Program-made: the position numbers and the translations under genes
From: a virus
Taxonomy: Duplodnaviria > Heunggongvirae > Uroviricota > Caudoviricetes
DNA: 7,858 bases
Strand: one strand, 5' to 3'
IMG/VR virus record: IMGVR_UViG_2850808358_000013
Coordinates: 1-7,858 of that record
In this document: in pieces, positions 1-7,858 of the stretch
Position numbering within the stretch: position 1 is the stretch's first letter
How the letters are laid out: every line of letters begins with the position of its first letter
The notes under the pieces: model-generated
Seen by the model: the letters and a program-made list of their open reading frames with translations, nothing else
Databases searched by the model: none
What the model was told of the DNA's origin: nothing

Positions 1-939
1 TTATTTGATTTCAATTTTGTCCCACTCCCTGCCTCTGTCATCACGATACTGTGATGCCATGGTGTCCGACTTGTGCCCGAGAAGATGTTGAGCAAACTTA
101 TCGCTTATCTGCTTCTCATAGAGTCTTGCAGACAAACTGCGCAACTCGTGAAAGGTAGGTGGATCCCCTTCGAAGGAAAGACCTGATGCTTTTCGTGCGC
201 GCATAAAATACCTTGATACTGTGCCGGATGAAAGCGGTTCACGACGAGTAGATGCAATTATGGTTTCTCCGCCAAGAATCTCTTTGCATTTATCAAGTGT
301 TTCCTTCATTGATATCCCGAGAGCATCAACATGCAATGTTGTAGGGATGGCAATTTTTACGCCTGTTTTGCTTTGCTCGACATAAAGATATCCATCTACG
401 ATATCAGACCACTTCATTTCGCATAAATCACCAACTCGTTGCCCGGTAACAACAGCCAGTTCCATTGCAAGTCTGAGCCAACATGGTGATGATTCTGCTG
501 CTTGATAAATTTTCAGGTATTCGTCAGCCGTAAGTCTTGATCTCCTTACCTCTGATTTTGCTGCGCGAGTGGCAGCGACCGGGTTTGTTGTTATATGGCC
601 TTCAGCTATTGCCTCTCGGAATGCATCGCTCAGTGTTGATCTGATTAACTTGGCTGATGCCGCCTTGCCCTCGTCTATGTATCCATTGAGCATTGCCGCA
701 ATTTCTTTTGTGGTGATGTCTTCAAGTGGAGCATCAGGCAGCCCCCTCCTTATTGCTTTAATTTTGCTCATGTAATTTATGAGTGTCTTCTGCTTGATTC
801 CTCTGCTGGCGAGGATTTTTTCGTAGCGAGCAAGCCATGAATGTAACGTAACAGAATTATCACTGTTGATTCTCGCTGTCAGAGGCTTGTGTTTGTGTCC
901 TGAAAATAACTCAATGTTGGCCTGTATAGCTTCAGTGAT
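1..939 (-). pseudogene. int: Lambda-type tyrosine integrase (Int), 5'-truncated remnant; the longest ATG-initiated ORF is 1..771
   Basis: Minus-strand translation ends ...HLLGHKSDTMASQYRDDRGREWDKIEIK with the stop at 1-3, which I recognise as the C-terminus of phage lambda Int; the catalytic signatures HELR, LLGH and SQY are present. My manual translation upstream of the M at 771 continues in frame (..ITEAIQANIELFSGHKHKPLTARINSDNSVTLHSWLARYEKILASRGIKQKTLINYMSKI..) up to 939, where the frame enters the IS terminus and meets a stop (955-957). About 37 N-terminal codons and the start codon are missing. Confidence 0.9.
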
Positions 940-968
940 TGAGGTAGCCTGAGTTTAACGGACACTCC
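940..968 (+). repeat. Left terminal inverted repeat of the IS600-like element
   Basis: tgaggtagcctgagtttaacggacactcc; pairs with the reverse complement of the right end (tgaggtgtactggcaatagcggacactacc), about 20 of 29 positions identical. Confidence 0.6.
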
Positions 969-1003
969 TTCCTGAAATAGAATGGCATCAGAAGGAGCTA
1001 ATA

Positions 1004-1306
1004 ATGAGCAGAAAAACCCAACGTTACTCTAAAGAGTTCAAAGCTGAAGCTGTCAGAACGGTTCTTGAAAATCAACTTTCGATCAGTGAAGGCGCTTCCC
1101 GATTATCCCTTCCTGAAGGCACTTTAGGACAATGGGTTACCGCCGCCAGAAAAGGGCTCGGTACTCCTGGTTCCCGCACGGTGGCTGAACTGGAATCTGA
1201 AATTCTGCAACTGCGTAAGGCGTTAAATGAAGCTCGCCTTGAGCGAGATATATTAAAAAAAGCAACAGCGTATTTTGCACAGGAGTCGCTGAAAAATACG
1301 CGTTAA
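1004..1306 (+). CDS. IS3-family transposase OrfA (helix-turn-helix plus leucine-zipper-like C-terminus)
   Basis: 100-aa ORF with AGGAG 6 nt upstream of the ATG; the product ends ..ERDILKKATAYFAQESLK, typical of IS3-family OrfA; the slippery run lies near its 3' end. Confidence 0.9.
   Translation: MSRKTQRYSKEFKAEAVRTVLENQLSISEGASRLSLPEGTLGQWVTAARKGLGTPGSRTVAELESEILQLRKALNEARLERDILKKATAYFAQESLKNTR
1255..1261 (+). other. Programmed -1 ribosomal frameshift site (A AAA AAA followed by G) generating the OrfAB fusion transposase
   Basis: The heptamer aaaaaaa + g at 1255-1262 sits in the orfA frame as tta-aaa-aaa-gca; the orfB frame (the frame of the ATG at 1342) is exactly -1 relative to orfA. This is the known IS3-family mechanism (established for IS911 and IS3). 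Confidence 0.6.
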
Positions 1307-1341
1307 TCGAACAATGGCGACAACAATTTCCCATTGAAGCG

Positions 1342-2160
1342 ATGTGTCAGGTATTTGGTGTATCCAGGAGCGGTTATTACAACTGGGTACAGCATGAACC
1401 CTCAGACAGAAAACAAAGTGATGAGCGGCTAAAACTGGAGATTAAGGTGGCACATATCCGCACTCGCGAAACATATGGAACCCGGCGGCTCCAGACGGAG
1501 CTGGCAGAGAATGGCATCATCGTTGGTCGTGACCGACTGGCACGTCTTCGTAAGGAGCTAAGGCTACGCTGTAAGCAGAAACGCAAGTTCAGAGCGACTA
1601 CGAACCCGAACCACAATCTGCCAGTTGCGCCAAATCTGCTGAACCAGACGTTCGCTCCTACAGCACCAAATCAGGTCTGGGTGGCGGACCTGACGTATGT
1701 TGCCACACAGGAGGGATGGTTGTACCTCGCTGGCATCAAAGATGTTTATACGTGCGAAATTGTCGGCTACGCCATGGGAGAGCGCATGACAAAAGAGCTG
1801 ACAGGTAAAGCCCTGTTTATGGCGCTCAGGAGCCAGCGCCCACCTGCCGGGCTAATCCACCACTCTGATCGAGGTTCACAGTACTGCGCATACGATTACC
1901 GGGTCATACAGGAGCAGTTTGGTCTGAAAACATCAATGTCGCGTAAAGGTAACTGTTACGACAACGCTCCGATGGAAAGCTTCTGGGGAACGCTGAAAAA
2001 TGAGAGCCTGAGCCACTATCGTTTTAATAACCGGGATGAAGCCATCTCAGTAATACGGGAATACATTGAGATTTTCTACAATCGTCAGCGTCGTCACTCT
2101 CGTCTGGGGAATATCTCCCCGGCAGCCTTCAGGGAAAAATATCATCAGATGGCTGCTTAA
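1342..2160 (+). CDS. IS3-family transposase OrfB (DDE / retroviral-integrase-like catalytic core)
   Basis: 272-aa ORF containing DDE motif elements (..VWVADLTYV.., ..HHSDRGSQY.., ..NAPMESFWGTLKNE..); it lies in the -1 frame relative to orfA. Confidence 0.9.
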   Translation: MCQVFGVSRSGYYNWVQHEPSDRKQSDERLKLEIKVAHIRTRETYGTRRLQTELAENGIIVGRDRLARLRKELRLRCKQKRKFRATTNPNHNLPVAPNLLNQTFAPTAPNQVWVADLTYVATQEGWLYLAGIKDVYTCEIVGYAMGERMTKELTGKALFMALRSQRPPAGLIHHSDRGSQYCAYDYRVIQEQFGLKTSMSRKGNCYDNAPMESFWGTLKNESLSHYRFNNRDEAISVIREYIEIFYNRQRRHSRLGNISPAAFREKYHQMAA

Positions 2161-2174
2161 AAAAAGAACAAATG

Positions 2175-2203
2175 GTAGTGTCCGCTATTGCCAGTACACC
2201 TCA
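2175..2203 (+). repeat. Right terminal inverted repeat of the IS600-like element
   Basis: ggtagtgtccgctattgccagtacacctca ends in CA-3'; its reverse complement matches the left repeat. Confidence 0.6.
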
Positions 2204-2283
2204 TTCAGTTAATGCCTCGCAGAAAAAGCGCTCCTGCTGCTTAACAAATTCAACGATATCGAACATTTTTTTGGTCCTGAAAA

Positions 2284-2565
2284 TCAGAAAGGACAGGGGG
2301 AGAATTTTCTCTCCCATTCTTCTTCCGCCCGAGCATAGGCGATCGCTGAGATATAATCGTTGTACGCCTCTTCAGCTTTTTCGCCAGTGAGTGCCAGTTG
2401 GGCTTCTTTGGGTAAAAAAAGGCTGCTCATAAGCAATGGTTTATCGGGGAACATGCTGATAAGCTCCTGCGCCCGATCATCAATCCATTTATCCTTTTCA
2501 TCCTGAATATGCTGATTAACCCAGCGACGCTCCTCTATGCGGTCGCAGGTGAGGTATGCGTTCAT
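2284..2565 (-). CDS. Hypothetical small acidic protein (93 aa), last gene of the Rha operon
   Basis: ORF with AGGAG 9 nt upstream of the ATG (reverse complement of 2566-2580); its start is 20 nt after the stop of the upstream ORF. By my count 19 D/E versus 12 K/R. No family recognised. Confidence 0.55.
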   Translation of the reverse strand: MNAYLTCDRIEERRWVNQHIQDEKDKWIDDRAQELISMFPDKPLLMSSLFLPKEAQLALTGEKAEEAYNDYISAIAYARAEEEWERKFSPCPF

Positions 2566-2585
2566 GGCGGAACTCCTGATTCCGG

Positions 2586-2867
2586 TTAATGCATTAAATT
2601 AATTTGTCGGGAAAGCTGACAGACAGGGCAGTTACATTCTTCCTCCTGCTCTTTAGCGAAGAAATATGCAGCGGCCTGTAATGCGATGTCTTCTGGATGT
2701 TCCGCGATAAACATAACATTGCCTTCCGTATCAATAACAGAAATAGCCTCATCAGGCAGGACGACAAAATAGGCGATGATTTTATCATCCATAAAAACTT
2801 CTCCCATTATCGTTTCTGCTGGCGTTATGACGTTTTTTACATTGATATTAATTTTTTGATTGAGCAT
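2586..2867 (-). CDS. Hypothetical small, strongly acidic protein (93 aa) with a C-terminal C-x-C-x-x-C motif
   Basis: ORF with AAGGA about 7 nt upstream of the ATG; its start is 11 nt after the stop of the upstream ORF. About 15 D/E versus 5 K/R; ends ..EECNCPVCQLSRQINLMH. No family recognised. Confidence 0.55.
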   Translation of the reverse strand: MLNQKININVKNVITPAETIMGEVFMDDKIIAYFVVLPDEAISVIDTEGNVMFIAEHPEDIALQAAAYFFAKEQEEECNCPVCQLSRQINLMH

Positions 2868-2878
2868 GATATTTCCTT

Positions 2879-3091
2879 TCAGGCTGGTGAGATTAACGGT
2901 TGGCCTTTATGGTTCAGGTAAACTTCGATTGCATCTGAAATAATGCGGATTTTTTCAATCAGTGAATGTGCGTAAAGTGCATTATTAACGTTAGCTGACG
3001 CCATGTAATAACGCCCGTTGTAAAGAATTGCTGTACCGGGTTTAACGTCCTCGCGAGAAACTAATGCGGTTCCGTAGTGAGGTTTGAGCAT
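2879..3091 (-). CDS. Hypothetical small protein (70 aa)
   Basis: ORF with a strong GGAGG 7 nt upstream of the ATG (reverse complement of 3092-3110: ccGGAGGatttgtcATG). Same strand and tight spacing with the neighbouring genes. Confidence 0.55.
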   Translation of the reverse strand: MLKPHYGTALVSREDVKPGTAILYNGRYYMASANVNNALYAHSLIEKIRIISDAIEVYLNHKGQPLISPA

Positions 3092-3130
3092 GACAAATCC
3101 TCCGGTTAATTAATCCAGATATTTAATTTA

Positions 3131-3153
3131 ATCCCCGATATGTGATCGGGGAT
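3131..3153 (-). other. Perfect 9-bp inverted repeat (hairpin) between the Rha gene and the 70-aa ORF
   Basis: atccccgat-atgtg-atcggggat; on the minus-strand mRNA it is followed by an A/U-rich stretch (UAAAUUAAAUAU) rather than a clean U-tract. Confidence 0.4.
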
Positions 3154-3161
3154 GGGGTTAA

Positions 3162-3800
3162 TTAAAGATTAACGTTGAAACCAAAGCGGGAAGACTTTTC
3201 CGATGTGCGGGAAATATCCAGCAATTTACGGCGCATTTCTTCCGTCAGATGCTTGAAGGCGTTAAATTCGGCGACAGCCGCATCGACGTTATAGCCGTTA
3301 CGACGTAATTCATTAAATATGCGCATTGCAGGGCTTGGCATGTCGAATAAGACGGAGGTATCAAGCTGCAATGTATTTCTATCAACATAGTTCATCGTGG
3401 CATAGGGGTGATGCTCTGAAAACCACGATAAAGGGAAATTGATATTCATCGCAGGAGAAGACAGGGCCAGTTGTTTCTGTTCCCATAGTTGTTTTTCCAT
3501 GCGATCGAATTCAGCAATGTAGGCTTCCTTGAATGCAGCTGCTTTTTTGCCGGTGAAGCCCATCACCAGAAAAACGAAGCCGTTTTTGGTGATTTGGTAG
3601 GCGTTATAGGTATTGCCTCGGTGTTCGAATTTAACCCGCGAAAAGTTGCGGGTTAAGAATTGCTCAGAGCATTCGAGGGATTCTATTTTCTGAACAACAT
3701 GGTGATGCTGCTTGCCAAAAAACTCAGCAATCGAAATAGAAGTAGTGACGGCGCGACCATTTTCGATGGTTACGTCAGGGTGAGAAAGGGTAGTAGCCAT
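3162..3800 (-). CDS. rha: Rha-family phage regulatory protein (pRha domain; antirepressor-like)
   Basis: N-terminus MATTLSHPDVTIENGRAVTTSISIAEFFGKQHHHVVQKIESL...YQITKNGFVFLVMGFTGKKAAAFKEAYIAEFDRME matches the pRha N-terminal domain as I remember it. Start chosen at ATG 3800 (GAGGA 7 nt upstream) rather than the track's 3959; the 53-codon in-frame extension is GC-rich and low-complexity. Confidence 0.8.
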   Translation of the reverse strand: MATTLSHPDVTIENGRAVTTSISIAEFFGKQHHHVVQKIESLECSEQFLTRNFSRVKFEHRGNTYNAYQITKNGFVFLVMGFTGKKAAAFKEAYIAEFDRMEKQLWEQKQLALSSPAMNINFPLSWFSEHHPYATMNYVDRNTLQLDTSVLFDMPSPAMRIFNELRRNGYNVDAAVAEFNAFKHLTEEMRRKLLDISRTSEKSSRFGFNVNL

Positions 3801-3830
3801 AATGACATCCTCAAGTGATAAGTTAATTAA

Positions 3831-3937
3831 CTCACCACCAGAGGTGCTAATCTCATGGGTGGTGAGACGCACAGGGTTAGCACTACCGGTCACTCGAGAA
3901 CCCGGCCAGCCTTGCGGCTGCCCCGCACGCCTCACCA
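3831..3937 (-). promoter_or_regulatory. Structured 5' leader of rha with three copies of a complementary motif allowing alternative hairpins
   Basis: Plus-strand ctcaccacc (3831-3839) and ggtggtgag (3858-3866) form a perfect 9-bp stem; a third copy ctcacca (3931-3937) can alternatively pair with the middle element. cagcc-ttgc-ggctg (3907-3920) is a GCAA (GNRA) tetraloop hairpin on the minus-strand RNA. Confidence 0.4.
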
Positions 3938-3961
3938 TAATTTGAATGTGGCTGTGCATTA

Positions 3962-4043
3962 CGCATAAAAAAACCGCTTCAGCGCGGTTATGCGCTCGAG
4001 TAACTTTCGGGGTGCTAATCCCGGCACCCGTTTTATGAGGTGT
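3962..4043 (-). ncRNA. Putative small RNA (about 80 nt) between a promoter-like motif and an intrinsic terminator; hypothetical
   Basis: Minus-strand -35 TTGACT (4078-4073), 17-nt spacer, -10 TATATT (4055-4050). The predicted transcript 5'-ACACCUCAUAAAACGGGUGCCGGGAUUAGCACCCCGAAAGUUACUCGAGCGCAUAACCGCGCUGAAGCGGUUUUUUU contains a 6-bp GC hairpin (4010-4029) and the terminator hairpin; no plausible ORF. Confidence 0.25.
3967..3989 (-). terminator. Rho-independent terminator acting on minus-strand transcripts
   Basis: Minus-strand RNA AACCGC-GCUGAA-GCGGUU followed by a U-run (plus-strand A-run 3967-3973); the stem is short, so moderate strength; preceded by a second hairpin. Confidence 0.45.
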
Positions 4044-4049
4044 TCGCCA

Positions 4050-4078
4050 AATATAGCCCCGACATCACACGCAGTCAA
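4050..4078 (-). promoter_or_regulatory. Sigma70-like promoter candidate P2 (TTGACT-17-TATATT) on the minus strand
   Basis: Hexamers read directly from the reverse complement; shares the 11-mer TATTGACTGCG with P1. Confidence 0.3.
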
Positions 4079-4383
4079 TATCGTCCTTTCTCGGAAATGC
4101 TTTGGCGGTGCCGCCTGCACCCAAAACATTCCCTGTATTGGTCAGCGCCAACTTCCTGCCAGTGTTGCCCGTTCTCACGCCGTTCTCGCTCTCGCGCGGG
4201 GATACTCTCTCATCGACCGGATCGCACCCGATGATACAGCACGTTTACGTGTAGGGGTCTAAACAGGTCATTGACGCTGTAAAGCTCCAGATTGTTAAAG
4301 AGCATTTTGCGGCGGGTTAAGTCGCGCCGTACGACTGATTTATGTAGCCCTGTGTCAGGGCGCGATGTTTCTGGCTTGGGTAA

Positions 4384-4413
4384 AATATAATAAGTGCAAC
4401 TGATCGCAGTCAA
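4384..4413 (-). promoter_or_regulatory. Sigma70-like promoter candidate P1 (TTGACT-18-TATATT) on the minus strand
   Basis: Reverse complement of agtcaa (4408-4413) and aatata (4384-4389); sits in an AT-rich block; the same TATTGACTGCG 11-mer as P2, about 335 bp upstream of it. Confidence 0.25.
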
Positions 4414-4641
4414 TAGCAAGACTAATAATTTAATTTTAATCTATGTGATTGATTTTTAGATTAATTTATTTATGTAAAAAATATAAGCGAGGATAATGCA
4501 GGTGGTGAGTTATGGAGGATGCGCAAAGAAAAAACGGCGCTGAGGCCGGTTACTCTGTGTTAGATTTGGTGTGAGGGAACCCCTGATAACACTAAGAAAA
4601 GCAGTGAACAGTCAAAGAGAACCCAGCGGGCTTGGTGGCTT

Positions 4642-4670
4642 TTGACAAAAACATCGCCTGTAACTATAAT
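4642..4670 (+). promoter_or_regulatory. Consensus sigma70 promoter for the hicAB-like operon (TTGACA-17-TATAAT)
   Basis: ttgaca at 4642-4647, 17-nt spacer, tataat at 4665-4670. The palindrome aacta-taat-tagtt overlaps the -10 and is a candidate autoregulatory operator. Confidence 0.6.
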
Positions 4671-4699
4671 TAGTTGCAATGTAGCGAAGATGAGATTAT

Positions 4700-4954
4700 G
4701 TGGGTATGGGGAAAGCAGATAAGCTACTGGAAAAGTTTTTAAACAGTAAAAAAACGTTTGAATGGGATGAGTTGGTCGTTTTGTTTTCCTCTCTGGGATA
4801 TGTCAAAAAGGAAATGCAGGGCTCAAGAGTGCGGTTTTTCAATGCTGAAATCAACCACACCATATTAATGCATCGCCCACATCCAGAAAGTTATATTAAA
4901 GGTGGAACGCTGAAAGCGATTAAACAGAATCTGAAAGAGGCTGGGGTATTATGA
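4700..4954 (+). CDS. hicA: HicA-family toxin-like protein (YcfA/HicA fold, putative mRNA interferase); initiation may be at ATG 4706
   Basis: ..KADKLLEKFLNSKKTFEWDELVVLFSSLGY..QGSRVRFFNAEINHTILMHRPHPESYIKGGTLKAIKQNLKEAGVL fits the HicA pattern as I remember it; the stop overlaps the next start (ATGA at 4951-4954). The track start is GTG 4700. Confidence 0.7.
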   Translation: MGMGKADKLLEKFLNSKKTFEWDELVVLFSSLGYVKKEMQGSRVRFFNAEINHTILMHRPHPESYIKGGTLKAIKQNLKEAGVL

Positions 4955-5295
4955 ATCATCTAAAATATAAAGGATATTTAGGTACAGTAGAACCAGATTT
5001 TGAAAATAATATCCTGTACGGAAAACTGGCGTTTATTCGAGACCTGGTAACTTATGAGGCTTCTACATTAGCTGAACTGGAACAGGAGTTTAAGACATCG
5101 GTTGAGCTGTATTTACAGTCTTGTGTGGAGGATGGAAAGGAGCCTGATACCCCGTTTAAAGGTGTGTTTAACGTCAGACTTGATCCAGAACTGCATCGTC
5201 GGGTCGCTGAAATGGCGATGGAAGAAGATTTATCACTGAACGCCTTTGTTAATAAGGCGCTGGAAAAAGAAGTCAACCATCACACAGGGGCTTAA
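4951..5295 (+). CDS. hicB: HicB-family antitoxin-like protein with a C-terminal ribbon-helix-helix DNA-binding domain
   Basis: N-terminal YKGYLGTVEPDFENNILYGKLAFIRDL..EEPDTPF resembles HicB N-domains; C-terminal KGVFNVRLDPELHRRVAEMAMEEDLSLNAFVNKALEKEV is RHH-like; 4-bp overlap with hicA. Confidence 0.7.
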   Translation: MNHLKYKGYLGTVEPDFENNILYGKLAFIRDLVTYEASTLAELEQEFKTSVELYLQSCVEDGKEPDTPFKGVFNVRLDPELHRRVAEMAMEEDLSLNAFVNKALEKEVNHHTGA

Positions 5296-5382
5296 TGTTC
5301 CCTTCGTCTTTGACATCCTCACCGCCGAAGAATGGGGAATTTACGGCGCACTGGTAAATGGTGGGGCGAGCAGGAGGCAAAC

Positions 5383-5408
5383 AAAACCCGGCACCAAGGC
5401 CGGGTTTT
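5383..5408. terminator. Bidirectional Rho-independent terminator between the convergent hicAB-like operon and the repressor operon
   Basis: aaaacccggc-accaag-gccgggtttt: a perfect 10-bp stem with a 6-bp GC core and a 6-nt loop, with an A-run upstream and TTTTGTT downstream, so a U-tract follows on both strands. Confidence 0.6.
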
Positions 5409-5409
5409 G

Positions 5410-5580
5410 TTATTGGTGCATTTGGCAGGTTGTAATATCTGGTCCATAAGCCAAAGTAAAAACAGGCTTGTTGATCAAGCCCATGTTCTTTAATGATTGA
5501 ATCATTTTTCCTTGCTCGCTAACTTTTTGCTTGCTAAGTATTTCTTCCACTTGTTGTGTCAAGGATTTGTCTTTGTTCAT
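5410..5580 (-). CDS. Unlisted 56-codon ORF between the repressor gene and the terminator; hypothetical
   Basis: Manual translation of the minus strand gives MNKDKSLTQQVEEILSKQKVSEQGKMIQSLKNMGLINKPVFTLAYGPDITTCQMHQ; the stop lies 2 nt from the terminator stem; only a weak GTGAG Shine-Dalgarno. Below the ORF-track length cutoff. Confidence 0.3.
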   Translation of the reverse strand: MNKDKSLTQQVEEILSKQKVSEQGKMIQSLKNMGLINKPVFTLAYGPDITTCQMHQ

Positions 5581-5701
5581 TTATGGCTCACTTGATTGCG
5601 ACTGCTCCCCGCCCGCATTGGGCGAGGGTTCTCGGAGATTTTTCGCTGAAAAAGGAAATAAAATAGCCTCCCTGCAAGGTTATTGATATCATCCTGTGAG
5701 T

Positions 5702-6421
5702 TCAATCAAAAGTCTCATCATTCCACTGCGACTTTATGACCTTTCCGACAAACGGGCAGTTTTCGTTACACTCAATCATGTCGAATCGTGGGTTGAGTGG
5801 CTCCAGGTACGCTTTACCGCTCTCACGAATGAATCGTTTGAAGGTGAATTCATCGCCATTCATTCGGGCCACGCAAAAATCGCCATCCTCAATCTCCCGC
5901 TCAGGGTCAACGAGTATCAGCATCCCTTCGGGGAAACTGGGTTTACCACCCTGCGGCGCGGTCATTGAATGCCCCTTGACCTCCAGCCAGAACGACCTGT
6001 CACTGGCTTTTGTGGTGGTGGAGATCCACTTAATCGCATCCTTTGCGGTGTACGAAAAATCATCCATTGAGAAAGCTCCAGCCTGTACGCAGGAGAGTAA
6101 CGGATATTCGTAATATTTCTCGAACAGGTTACGCCTGTTTCCCGGTGTGTGGGTACGAATACTGCGTAACAAATCACTCAGATCTGGATTAATTTCTTCC
6201 GCAGGAACCTGTAATAAAGCCGCAAACTTAAGGGTATTTTCAGTATTTAACGCAATTTTTGCGTTCAATAACTGACTAACAGCCCCCTGCGTTTTGAAGC
6301 CGAGGATATCTGCGGCTTTTTCCTGGCTTAGGGATAGCTGTTTCCGTTTTTCATCCCAGATTTTGCGCAGTCGTTCAGCGTTCTGGATGTCTTTGTCAGT
6401 AATTGTAATTTTCTTCGTCAT
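5702..6421 (-). CDS. cI: Lambda cI-like prophage repressor (N-terminal HTH, C-terminal LexA/S24 autopeptidase domain)
   Basis: The C-terminal half is nearly colinear with lambda cI as I recall it (..[16 protein letters not shown].., ..[30 protein letters not shown].., ..[13 protein letters not shown].., ..[14 protein letters not shown]); Ala-Gly cleavage site, Ser (GHSM) and Lys (FKRF) all present. Start set at ATG 6421 (GGAGG 4 nt upstream) rather than the track's 6460. Confidence 0.9.
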
Positions 6422-6472
6422 AGTGCCTCCAATTTTATTAGCAACACAAATATTTATCAAATAGCTGGCCTG

Positions 6473-6500
6473 TTGACATTTAAATCAGGTAAGCTAATAT
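6473..6500 (+). promoter_or_regulatory. pR-like sigma70 promoter for the cro-like gene (TTGACA-16-TAATAT) in the divergent repressor/cro intergenic region
   Basis: ttgaca at 6473-6478 and taatat at 6495-6500; GGGAGG 6 nt before the ATG at 6527; the palindrome atttaaat lies in the spacer. The leftward repressor promoter and the operators were not resolved. Confidence 0.5.
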
Positions 6501-6526
6501 CGGAAAATTGAAATGGGAGGATCTCT

Positions 6527-6766
6527 ATGACTCTTGACGAGTACTTGAGACAAAGCTCTATCAGACAAGCCGATTTTGCGGCGATTGTTGGAGTTTCTCA
6601 GGGATTTGTCAGTGGGGTTATTACAGGGAGATACATGCCTCAGGGGCGGAAAGCCATTGAATGGGCAAAAGCTACAGACTGGAATGTAACTCCCCATGAA
6701 CTAAACCCGCATGACTACCTAAACATGGAAGATGGTATTCCGCTTCATGTAAGGCAAACAGCCTGA
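6527..6766 (+). CDS. Cro / YdaS-like small HTH regulator (79 aa)
   Basis: Divergent from the repressor gene with a strong SD; ..IRQADFAAIVGVSQGFVSGVITGRYMPQGRKAIEWAKATDWNVTPHELNPHDY fits the Cro/YdaS-type HTH pattern as I remember it. Confidence 0.7.
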   Translation: MTLDEYLRQSSIRQADFAAIVGVSQGFVSGVITGRYMPQGRKAIEWAKATDWNVTPHELNPHDYLNMEDGIPLHVRQTA

Positions 6767-6770
6767 TAAC

Positions 6771-6783
6771 CCTCCATCGGAGG
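6771..6783 (+). promoter_or_regulatory. Hairpin that pairs the Shine-Dalgarno sequence of the downstream ORF with an anti-SD
   Basis: cctcc-atc-ggagg: a perfect 5-bp stem whose 3' arm GGAGG is the SD located 5 nt upstream of the GTG start at 6789; it begins 5 nt after the cro-like stop. Confidence 0.4.
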
Positions 6784-6788
6784 TGTGA

Positions 6789-7070
6789 GTGAACAGGCAA
6801 ATCAAAACGGTTATGCCCGATCAGTACTGTGATGCTGATCGGGACTGGATACAGGAGCAATTGTTACAGCTAGACCCGACCACCAGGGTAAAAATTGCAG
6901 CAGAGTACGCGAGAGTGTACCAGGAAGAGTGGGACAAGGAGCCTGTATCGTTCAGGAAGGGCAACAGGGCAAGACGGAGCGCCAACACCCGGTTACGGGT
7001 GTATGTCCAGAAGTACGCGAGAGCCAGCCGTGGCTGGATGTTTTCGCCAGTAGCGATACGGAAGGAATAG
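6789..7070 (+). CDS. Hypothetical protein (93 aa; GTG start) in the position of cII / early-right genes; basic C-terminal half
   Basis: ORF directly downstream of the cro-like gene with GGAGG at -5; product ..DRDWIQEQLLQLDPTTRVKIAAEYARVYQEEWDKEP..RKGNRARRSANTRLRVYVQKYARASRGW..; no family recognised. An alternative ATG lies at 6813. Confidence 0.5.
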   Translation: MNRQIKTVMPDQYCDADRDWIQEQLLQLDPTTRVKIAAEYARVYQEEWDKEPVSFRKGNRARRSANTRLRVYVQKYARASRGWMFSPVAIRKE

Positions 7071-7096
7071 ATCTCATCAAGGTTATTATTTTTTTG

Positions 7097-7141
7097 TGAA
7101 ATGATTTCGCATGAAATCATTGCGCTTGAAATTTTACTAAG
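7097..7141. repeat. Three TGAAAT motifs at exact 15-bp spacing, with an embedded 9-bp inverted repeat
   Basis: TGAAAT at 7097, 7112 and 7127; units 1 and 2 match at 12 of 15 positions; inverted repeat aatgatttc (7100-7108) / gaaatcatt (7113-7121) with a 4-nt spacer; preceded by a T7 run and followed by tandem AAGGGGGT / AAGGGGGC (7142-7157). Confidence 0.45.
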
Positions 7142-7307
7142 AAGGGGGTAAGGGGGCAGATCTGTAACATCCGTGCCTGTAAGGGCACTACCAGAGGAAG
7201 GCAGCTCCATAGGTTAGGTAGATCACTGTATAGGGTGAGATGGTTTCTGACGAAATTGTTATTATGCTAACCATTACGGTAGAAATAGTACCATACTCAT
7301 CAAACAT

Positions 7308-7483
7308 GTGGTTATCAGCCTGCTCGGAAACAAATTCTACACCGGAAAAGACAAGGTCACGTTTGATTATGTGCTGGCTGCCAAATTGCGTGATGCCGGA
7401 CTGGCGATCGAACGTAATTATCTGGTTGATATGGCAACGGTAAGCGCGGATTCGTCGATATCATGGTCGTTGCCCCATCTGGT
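7308..7483 (+). pseudogene. Fragment of an unidentified gene, 3'-truncated by the IS911 insertion
   Basis: Protein-like frame ..GNKFYTGKDKVTFDYVLAAKLRDAGLAIERNYLVDMATVSADSSISWSLPHL runs straight into the IS terminus at 7484; the final residues and stop of the track ORF are encoded by the IS end. No convincing start or RBS (GTG at 7308 only). Confidence 0.35.

Positions 7484-7858
<375 letters not shown>

Follow-up and report, generated by a model that had tools for sequence, protein, structure and literature searches.

A probable recombinant joint between two lambdoid prophages, marked by a single IS600 copy, in a Shigella boydii-type chromosome

The window analyzed here, a stretch of 7,858 nucleotides taken as a whole, contains a truncated lambda-type integrase gene (int'), a complete IS600 and a 5.3-kb piece of early prophage DNA running from a truncated recT (recT') to cro (2204-7486), which is bounded on one side by the IS600 and on the other by a piece of IS911 joined to yfaX (Table 1). 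The window is 100 % identical to CP026877.1, whose chromosome is Shigella boydii-type, a label taken from the source names of identical proteins. Within the 5.3-kb fragment, the reading frames of cI, cro, hicAB, kilR and gamL are still intact.

Table 1. Features of the window, with positions counted from its first nucleotide
Feature	Position	Strand	Basis or remark
int', truncated lambda-type integrase gene	1-939	-	aligned with lambda Int (structures 5j0n, 1z1g); Pfam
Left flanking triplet GAT	937-939		Int codon 45 (ATC on coding strand)
Complete IS600 (IS3 family), 1264 bp	940-2203	+	sequence comparison; Pfam; RefSeq names of copies
IS600 orfA	1004-1306	+	intact; Pfam HTH_Tnp_1
IS600 slippery A-run, putative frameshift region between orfA and orfB	1254-1261		read from sequence
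IS600 orfB	1342-2160	+	intact; Pfam rve/rve_2/rve_3/HTH_21
Right flanking triplet TTC	2204-2206		recT codon 21 (GAA on coding strand); mismatch to GAT
recT', RecT-family recombinase, first 21 codons	2204-2266	-	cut by IS600 right end
gamL, host nuclease inhibitor	2284-2565	-	PF28165 on identical products
Conserved 93-aa early-left ORF	2586-2867	-	
kilR-type cell-division inhibitor gene	2879-3091	-	PF27398
Rha/Ash-type regulator or antirepressor ORF	3162-3959	-	5' part overlaps C4 antisense RNA
C4 antisense RNA	3855-3942		
isrK	3967-4043		
hicA-hicB toxin-antitoxin pair	4700-5295	+	
CI/LexA-type prophage repressor (HTH + S24 peptidase)	5702-6421	-	apparently intact
cro-like HTH gene	6527-6766	+	
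93-aa ORF in cII position	6789-7070	+	
IS911 left end	7487-7858	+	rearrangement joint at the other end of the 5.3-kb prophage fragment

End-to-end alignment shows that the minus strand of 1-939 encodes residues 45-356 of lambda Int and the stop codon, with four substitutions, none of them within the catalytic-domain motifs. The catalytic and core-binding domains are homologous to those of lambda Int (Pfam Phage_integrase, E = 1e-40) and of the arm-binding profile no more than the final third is matched (Arm-DNA-bind_1, profile positions 50-74 of 74). Residues 1-44 and the gene's own start codon are missing, the longest open reading frame with a start codon being 1-771 (256 aa). The lambda-like frame thus runs to 939 and gives way to an IS terminus at 940, as a preliminary description of the window had it. 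In the source genome ybhC lies 134 bp past the int' stop codon, which on the K-12 map is one side of attB-lambda; the ybhB side is not adjacent to int'.

The element that interrupts int was at first called IS600-like. The assignment to this group stands and the qualifier can be dropped: with a length of 1264 bp and an identity of 99.4-99.9 % to copies that RefSeq names 'IS3-like element IS600 family transposase', 940-2203 is IS600 itself. Its terminal inverted repeats are imperfect, of about 29 bp and of the TG...CA type, and the ends TGAGGTAGCC...GTACACCTCA are the same in all copies compared. CP026877.1 carries many nearly identical copies.

With these exact boundaries, no direct repeat of 2, 3 or 4 bp fits around 940/2203: GAT adjoins the element on the left and TTC on the right. 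The preliminary description had reported this mismatch and had allowed that corrected boundaries might bring out a 3-4 bp repeat, which they do not. A simple IS600 insertion leaves a direct target duplication of 3 bp, rarely of 4 bp. Six control copies with identical ends, four in E. coli loci (L001, L003 and, with two copies, L004) and two in the window's own genome (L071), all have perfect 3-bp duplications (CTG, ATC, CTC, CCC, AAT, CTC). A broader baseline of 11 unrelated copies, retrieved by look-up of the IS600 OrfB protein, has the duplication in seven and lacks it in four. In uninterrupted relatives int continues as ...cagtGATtgcgatt (L001) and recT as ...gcgtcggTTCagttaatg (L018, L020, L023, L002). 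Because the duplication is absent and the two flanks continue into different genes, simple insertion is excluded; the missing duplication argues against that route and not against the identity of the element. Simple IS600 insertions in lambda-type int do exist in E. coli (O145:H28 RM12581; NIID080884). They have the same IS, orientation and 135-bp 5' stretch of int, but unlike the window they carry 3-bp duplications (ATC, CTC), and beyond the IS they go straight on into the int N-terminus and xis.

Here the far side is recT. The minus strand to the right of 2203 holds recT codons 1-21, closed by an immediate TGA that the IS600 tip provides, so that neither the missing Int N-terminus nor xis lies there, in keeping with what had been claimed; there is no xis anywhere in the window. 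At the other end of the fragment, the source genome has only positions 1-697 of IS911, fused to the C-terminal part of yfaX/rhmR, and since the remnant ends at this fusion, the right arm and attR are absent from it. Nothing here is able to excise: Int is missing both its start codon and the N-terminal arm-binding part, xis is absent, and no att site lies in the fragment. The earlier statement that excision functions have been lost is therefore borne out.

Such a joint could in principle be produced by a long-read assembler that fused two unrelated IS600 copies, and the many nearly identical copies in CP026877.1 would lend themselves to this error. We regard it as having a negligible chance of being correct, since both junctions recur in independent assemblies. 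The same joint is present in five of them (CP026877.1, JARKNR01, AFGE01, PSSR01 and QWSJ01), and the right junction is also reached by two short-read contigs. In AFGE01 and PSSR01 an IS911 with its own GAT duplication lies between int' and IS600; it was inserted later into the joint, which must therefore have existed in a cell.

The origin of the right flank is indicated by sister Shigella strains, in which the site between sibB/ibsB and mdtA is occupied by a lambdoid prophage that we call phiB and that carries an integrase of its own, int2. The segment 2204-7486 is collinear with phiB of CP026875.1, CP027027.1 and PSSP01 at 99.4-99.5 % identity, through both IS boundaries. No collinear match was found among E. 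coli complete genomes or phage records, where the best E. coli match consists of 5 pieces that together cover 94 % with an identity of 93 % and the best phage match covers 55 %. In CP026875.1 the segment is contiguous with recT-exo-ead...ORF6N-int2-mdtA, the neighbor being confirmed as mdtA. Only the first ~55 residues of int2 are in common with lambda Int, a blastn search with 1-939 gives no int2 match, and the Xis adjoining int2 bears the name of phage 434 Xis. That the DNA to the right of the IS might come from a different phage, as first suggested, agrees with this match to a prophage with its own integrase. An 8-nt flank that seemed common to the window IS600 and an IS600 copy in int2 proved to be a BLAST extension artefact; the int2 copy has a clean CTC duplication.

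CP026877.1 itself keeps the int2-proximal (left) arm of phiB at mdtA (1.636-1.657 Mb), about 1.8 Mb from the window and 99.5-100 % identical to the arms linked to the segment in other strains. GamL is found in one place only in this genome. Furthermore, yfaX is split between the window locus and the mdtA-arm locus, each half joined to IS911 positions 1-697, which ties the segment to the mdtA-yfaX region.

Taken together, these comparisons lead us to read the IS600 at 940-2203 as a recombinant joint between two different prophages, a scar and not a working device, with a probability of roughly three in four. Of the two routes named beforehand in place of simple insertion, IS-mediated deletion or recombination, the evidence favors recombination or rearrangement between IS600 copies of two prophages. 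On present sequence comparisons, deletion inside one prophage is probably not the origin. Such a deletion, through two direct IS600 copies or as an adjacent deletion, would have acted on a single ybhC prophage with lambda int and the recT-gamL-cI region and removed the int N-terminus, xis, the ea genes, exo and most of recT. It would account for the shared strand of int' and recT' and for their order, which is the one expected of a single lambdoid prophage. It also predicts the absence of the phiB exonuclease from joint-bearing genomes: the exact protein, reached by cluster look-up (a homologue search gave a 99 % representative from O157), occurs on five contigs larger than 1 Mb, none from a genome with the int'-IS600-recT' joint. 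A phage with lambda int and this early region is conceivable given lambdoid mosaicism, as xis and the first 165 nt (55 codons) of int are common to int2 and lambda int, which makes swaps of the integrase module easy. Against this, the sole collinear relatives of the segment (99.5 %) have int2 at mdtA and not lambda int, and the lambda-int prophages at ybhC in relatives have left arms of the form xis-ant-ORF6N-ead-abc2-kil-cIII-N or xis-ea-erf, the window's early region (recT-gamL-cI) being seen in none of those sampled. Moreover, the phiB integrase arm is still at mdtA in CP026877.1 and yet there is one copy only of the segment, whose other end the split yfaX links to the mdtA arm and not to a right arm of the lambda site. 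Judged by the sister-strain comparison, which is strong though not absolute, the two flanks do not come from one prophage, whereas an adjacent deletion would require that they did. We consider a single-prophage deletion unlikely.

For a joint between two prophages, we infer two earlier IS600 insertions, one in int at GAT and one in recT at TTC, both of which would have made a 3-bp duplication, and then homologous recombination between the two copies, which would have swapped their outer flanks. The outcome would be a single hybrid IS600 between GAT and TTC. If phiB was still at mdtA, the two copies would have been in inverted orientation, and recombination between them would have inverted a large stretch spanning the terminus. 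The mdtA arm of CP026877.1 begins at abc2' and not at recT or exo, and its past contiguity with the segment is thus read from the sister strains rather than seen in this lineage. In addition, the yfaX-IS911-abc2' joint also occurs in strains absent from the matches to the exact window GamL sequence, so that phiB may have been broken up before the IS600 joint arose and the one-inversion geometry may not be taken as established in its simple form. An attempted derivation found no single inversion, deletion or transposition that yields both IS911(1-697)/yfaX junctions.

A transposase might also have made the joint in one step, a resident IS600 in recT or int attacking the other site on the same chromosome, so that the IS was duplicated and the DNA between was inverted or deleted without a prior second insertion or homologous recombination. 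Both junctions lie exactly at IS termini, and the repeated use of GAT by IS3-family ends suggests that the site draws transposase-mediated events. However, IS3-family elements transpose by a copy-out, paste-in mechanism through a circle, which normally yields simple insertions (PMC2909936). The end structure is the same as that of the two-step homologous route, and the sequence by itself favors neither; on balance we hold the one-step origin to be more improbable still than the deletion.

Recombination between two prophages predicts a reciprocal joint, int N-terminus-xis / IS600 / rest of recT-exo, which would later have been lost or moved by further IS events. Protein look-ups and pattern scans with partial coverage of CP026877.1 did not find it (...TTC / IS600 / GAT...), and the other deletion endpoint, which the preliminary description expected in the same genome, likewise failed to appear in these searches. 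Viral contigs, scanned twice for the junctions that a reciprocal exchange would leave, gave no match either, in collections that probably do not include the CP026877.1 genome; an exact-pattern scan for the left junction gave none in a collection of species-representative genomes from which Shigella is evidently absent. The predicted truncated RecT product has no record. A 45-aa N-terminal Int peptide on record was rejected as an IS junction: its contigs stop at codon 45 because two integrase copies are identical from there on and the assembly graph branches, and several of them go on with the A found in intact int. Two of these contigs come from one genome. In S. flexneri the far side of the int' joint differs by strain, being pflA or a lysozyme gene, which shows that the IS600 copies located in this int exchange partners.

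The GAT at Int codon 45 has been used by three separate transposition-made junctions: the IS600 left end of this lineage, an IS600 right end in opposite orientation in S. flexneri, and the IS911 with its GAT duplication. IS911 is reportedly targeted to sites adjoining IS3-family inverted repeats, and the insertions in AFGE01 and PSSR01 resemble this in lying exactly against the IS600 left end. They differ from the targeting assays in that the resident end belongs to a different IS and the event is natural, so that targeting and chance are both possible. It is a tentative and rather doubtful suggestion that GAT abutting an IS3-family terminus is a site at which further IS3-family elements, other IS species included, insert preferentially. 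If true, natural genomes would record cross-element targeting of terminal inverted repeats, and such targeting would give rise to IS pairs, tandem or head-to-head, and hasten rearrangement. The recurrence of one triplet at both IS600 and IS911 junctions adds a modest observation from nature on how IS3-family elements choose their targets.

Cryptic lambdoid prophages such as Rac, DLP12 and Qin of E. coli K-12 are familiar remnants of this general kind. Like them, the remnant in the window keeps repressor, kil-type and toxin-antitoxin genes and can no longer excise; unlike them it is chimeric, with two prophages, two attachment sites and IS joints at both ends. IS-mediated rearrangement and prophage decay have been described in Shigella (PMC7373316). 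The joint shares with the scars left there by recombination between homologous copies of IS1, IS2, IS4, IS600 and IS911 an intact IS bounding truncated genes, the lack of a target duplication, flanks from distant loci and a surrounding region dense with other IS copies. It differs from them in nothing of kind; the particular combination of lambda int codon 45, IS600 and recT codon 21 is recorded in a handful of genomes. The phenomenon is already known, an ordinary scar of IS-driven genome shuffling in Shigella and no new kind of element.

The finding has some value for annotation: a region that could pass for one lambda prophage, decayed and internally deleted, is, if our reading holds, a chimera of two whose attachment sites lie about 1.35 Mb from each other on the K-12 map. 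Such a chimera would be misread by prophage predictors and in comparisons of 'prophage content'. Its wider importance is slight, as a further example of insertion sequences breaking up and reshuffling the prophages of Shigella.

We conclude that IS600 in this window joins remnants of two different prophages, a truncated lambda-type integrase gene (int', 1-939) on its left and the first codons of a RecT-family gene (recT') on its right. The element is 99.4-99.9% identical to copies named IS600 by RefSeq, and its boundaries are not in doubt because six control copies (four in E. coli loci, two in CP026877.1) have exactly the same termini. All six controls are flanked by perfect 3-bp duplications (CTG, ATC, CTC, CCC, AAT and CTC), whereas the window copy lies between GAT and TTC. 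In relatives without the interruption the int site reads cagtGATtgcgatt and the recT site gcgtcggTTCagttaatg, so the two flanks continue into different genes. The preliminary description had noted unequal flanks and argued against a simple insertion; both points are borne out, and no register of the IS boundaries yields a direct repeat. The duplication is 4 bp long (GAAC) at one unrelated IS600 copy, which lies in a DUF3313 gene. E. coli O145:H28 RM12581 and NIID080884 each have an independent insertion, with a duplication and oriented as in the window, within the first ~45 codons of lambda-type int; IS600 may prefer this region, or ascertainment may account for the clustering.

Features of the window and of comparison loci (window coordinates unless a locus, L, is named)
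Feature	Position	Strand	Remarks
IS600	940-2203		1264 bp; HTH orfA, DDE orfB
recT'	2204-2266	minus	first 21 codons; TGA stop from IS tip
gamL, 93-aa ORF, kilR	right of recT'	minus	in this order
Rha/Ash ORF	3162-3959	minus	C4 antisense RNA overlaps 5' part, isrK adjoining
Rha/Ash ORF, comparison locus	L014 5873-6763
C4 antisense RNA	3855-3942	minus	Rfam, 78.6 bits
isrK	3967-4043	minus	Rfam, 61.6 bits
hicA-hicB	4700-5295	plus	toxin-antitoxin pair
CI-type repressor	after hicAB	minus
cro-like gene, 93-aa ORF	after CI-type repressor	plus
IS911 left end	7487 to window edge 7858
complete IS911 of the IS911-GAT-IS600 head-to-tail pair	L015/L016 2398-3646		AFGE01000023.1, PSSR01000001.1
IS600, S. flexneri 2a 301	L010 8569-9833		AE005674.2; inverted; also L005, L007, L009, L011, L012
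IS600 in E. coli lambda-type int	L003 6369-7632; L004 6334-7597
IS600 in phiB recT			window codon 21; L022/L019 codon 116; L053 codon ~200
IS600 in DUF3313 gene	L028 3599-4862

The joint of int', IS600 and recT' is found in five independent assemblies, and its right junction is also reached by two short-read contigs. In two of these assemblies (AFGE01000023.1 and PSSR01000001.1) a complete IS911 lies exactly between int' and the left end of IS600 with GAT duplicated. An IS911 with its own duplication inside the joint means that the joint existed in the cell; this insertion and the five assemblies rule out assembly error as its origin.

The IS911 insertion is the third event at the GAT triplet. 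In S. flexneri, the int' remnant beside ybhC is truncated at the very nucleotide seen in the window, but IS600 is reversed, its right end abutting ATCACTGAAGC. Most strains have pflA beyond the element, LM651928.1 has a phage lysozyme gene there, and no duplication is present; these differing partners show directly that the partner changes by exchange between IS copies. Recombination inside an IS never breaks the junction between flank and terminus, so that two separate transpositions must have used one triplet. Neither orientation of the int'/IS600 junction occurred in 5,426 complete E. coli genomes. IS911 reportedly targets sites beside IS3-family ends already in place, which is a possible explanation for the reuse of GAT; the pair described here was the only abutting one among 110 IS600/IS911 matches at 50 loci.

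The minus-strand translation of int' matches lambda Int, as first described: over its full length it aligns with residues 45-356, with four substitutions and no stop. Its catalytic and central Pfam domains are present, together with the last third only of the arm-binding domain; the longest ORF with a start codon spans 1-771 (256 aa). In CP026877.1, int' lies 134 bp from ybhC, the lambda attachment site. The DNA right of IS600 was correctly said to encode neither the int N-terminus nor xis: recT', gamL and kilR lie there instead. Nothing in the window can excise, because Int is truncated (residues 1-44 and the start codon are missing), xis is missing, the fragment has no att site and the right arm is gone; the proposed loss of excision functions thus stands. 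The reading frames of the repressor, cro, hicAB, kilR and gamL are intact.

Within the right-hand segment, a C4 antisense RNA and isrK sit just upstream of or over the 5' part of the Rha/Ash ORF, an arrangement like the P1/P7-type immI antirepressor control module, here within a lambdoid early-left operon. This ORF has 265 aa (258 as called) in the window genome, against 296 aa in JARKNR01 and CP027027.1, and others have it split (window compared with L014); genuine frameshifts may explain the differences, as may indel errors of long-read sequencing. Between this antirepressor region and the cI repressor lies hicA-hicB, which is kept in all relatives of the segment's prophage lineage, phiB.

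CP026877.1 (GCA_002950035.1) contains the window with 100% identity, at about 4.95-4.97 Mb; the YbhC allele of this genome carries the source name Shigella boydii. Segment 2204-7486 matches three other Shigella chromosomes (CP026875.1, CP027027.1 and PSSP01) at 99.4-99.5% in one collinear alignment through both IS boundaries, whereas the best complete E. coli genome reaches 94% coverage, split into five pieces with 93% identity, and the best phage record reaches 55%. The mosaic is therefore peculiar to a single prophage lineage. In CP026875.1 phiB is unbroken (...cro-cI-hicBA-rha-kilR-gamL-recT-exo-ead-...-ORF6N-ORF6N-int2) and is followed directly by mdtA; the K-12 map and a comparison with 5,409 E. 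coli genomes confirm the identity of this neighbour. Its integrase, int2, resembles lambda Int over the first ~55 residues, diverges thereafter and has no nucleotide match to 1-939; the adjoining Xis bears the name of phage 434 Xis. Relatives whose ybhC prophage has an intact lambda-type int carry quite different left arms.

CP026877.1 itself retains the int2-proximal phiB arm at mdtA (L071, 1.636-1.657 Mb; abc2'-DUF2737-ead-p131-DUF4222-ORF6N-ORF6N-int2::IS600), 99.5-100% identical to the arms of strains in which arm and segment are linked, and the segment's exact GamL occurs at a single place in this genome, the window. On these sequence comparisons, we regard the persistence of this arm as decisive for the origin of the right-hand DNA in a different prophage, which upholds the earlier suggestion of a different phage module. 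Across Shigella genomes, IS600 has struck phiB recT at three positions; the copy in CP027027.1 and PSSP01 is itself interrupted by an IS30-like element and borders an intra-prophage inversion.

Segment and mdtA arm are further tied together by yfaX/rhmR, whose C-terminal part lies just beyond the IS911 fragment at the right edge of the window and whose N-terminal part precedes an identical fragment at the left edge of the arm. The halves lie ~1.8 Mb apart in CP026877.1 (window 7487 onward, L025/L014; L071 4439-5135); in K-12, by map position, 208 kb separate yfaX from mdtA and 1.55 Mb separate it from ybhC. Both are fused, in mirror-image arrangement, at the same internal point (about 697) of a 5' IS911 fragment, one junction within the 8-bp microhomology ATCCCTAA and the other within GGG(A), and the two IS911 left tips abut different phiB sequences. 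We could derive this arrangement from no single inversion, deletion or transposition. CP026877.1 shares the yfaX-N'/IS911/abc2' junction with CP026845.1, CP026846.1 and CP119446.1.

The simplest route would start from two independent simple IS600 insertions, in int at GAT and in recT at TTC, followed by homologous recombination between the copies. If phiB then still lay at mdtA, the copies would be inverted relative to each other, because the K-12 map has int and ybhC on its minus strand and int2, recT and mdtA on its plus strand, and in the window IS600 reads toward recT'. Exchange would invert roughly 1.35 Mb between the sites and place recT' beside int' on the same strand, as found in the window; this argument is one of consistency only. 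phiB may already have been fragmented when the IS600 joint arose, as other strains sharing the yfaX-IS911-abc2' joint are absent from matches to the exact GamL. A one-step rearrangement made by the transposase is conceivable and would yield the same final structure, but IS3-family elements normally transpose through a circle and yield simple insertions (PMC2909936).

Recombination of two prophages predicts a reciprocal joint (int N-terminus-xis / IS600 / rest of recT-exo), which neither an exonuclease look-up nor pattern scans found: the exact phiB exonuclease occurred in five contigs >1 Mb, all belonging to genomes without this joint, and the scans gave no match in collections that probably lack the CP026877.1 genome. 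A 45-aa Int N-terminal peptide, considered as a trace of it, is an artefact of draft contigs that break where two integrase copies become identical; drafts with two such integrases have contigs ending at codon 45, and the resulting '45-aa partial integrase' entries look like IS junctions (L043-L052). Because the reciprocal joint was not located, some weight stays with a simple deletion inside one phage that combined lambda int with this early region. We consider this unlikely, as it needs a second near-identical copy of a mosaic otherwise seen only with int2, and a coincidental yfaX link to the mdtA arm. Where deletion and recombination between IS copies had been offered side by side, an IS-mediated rearrangement is therefore supported, with recombination of two prophages favoured over deletion.

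The initial observation is thus confirmed and its interpretation supported. Shigella genomes each carry hundreds of IS copies. In an unselected set from two Shigella chromosomes, a duplication was present at 7 of 11 IS600 copies and absent at the other four. The joint is a known kind of event and an ordinary one for Shigella, where recombination between IS copies is known to cause rearrangements and loss of genes (PMC7373316).
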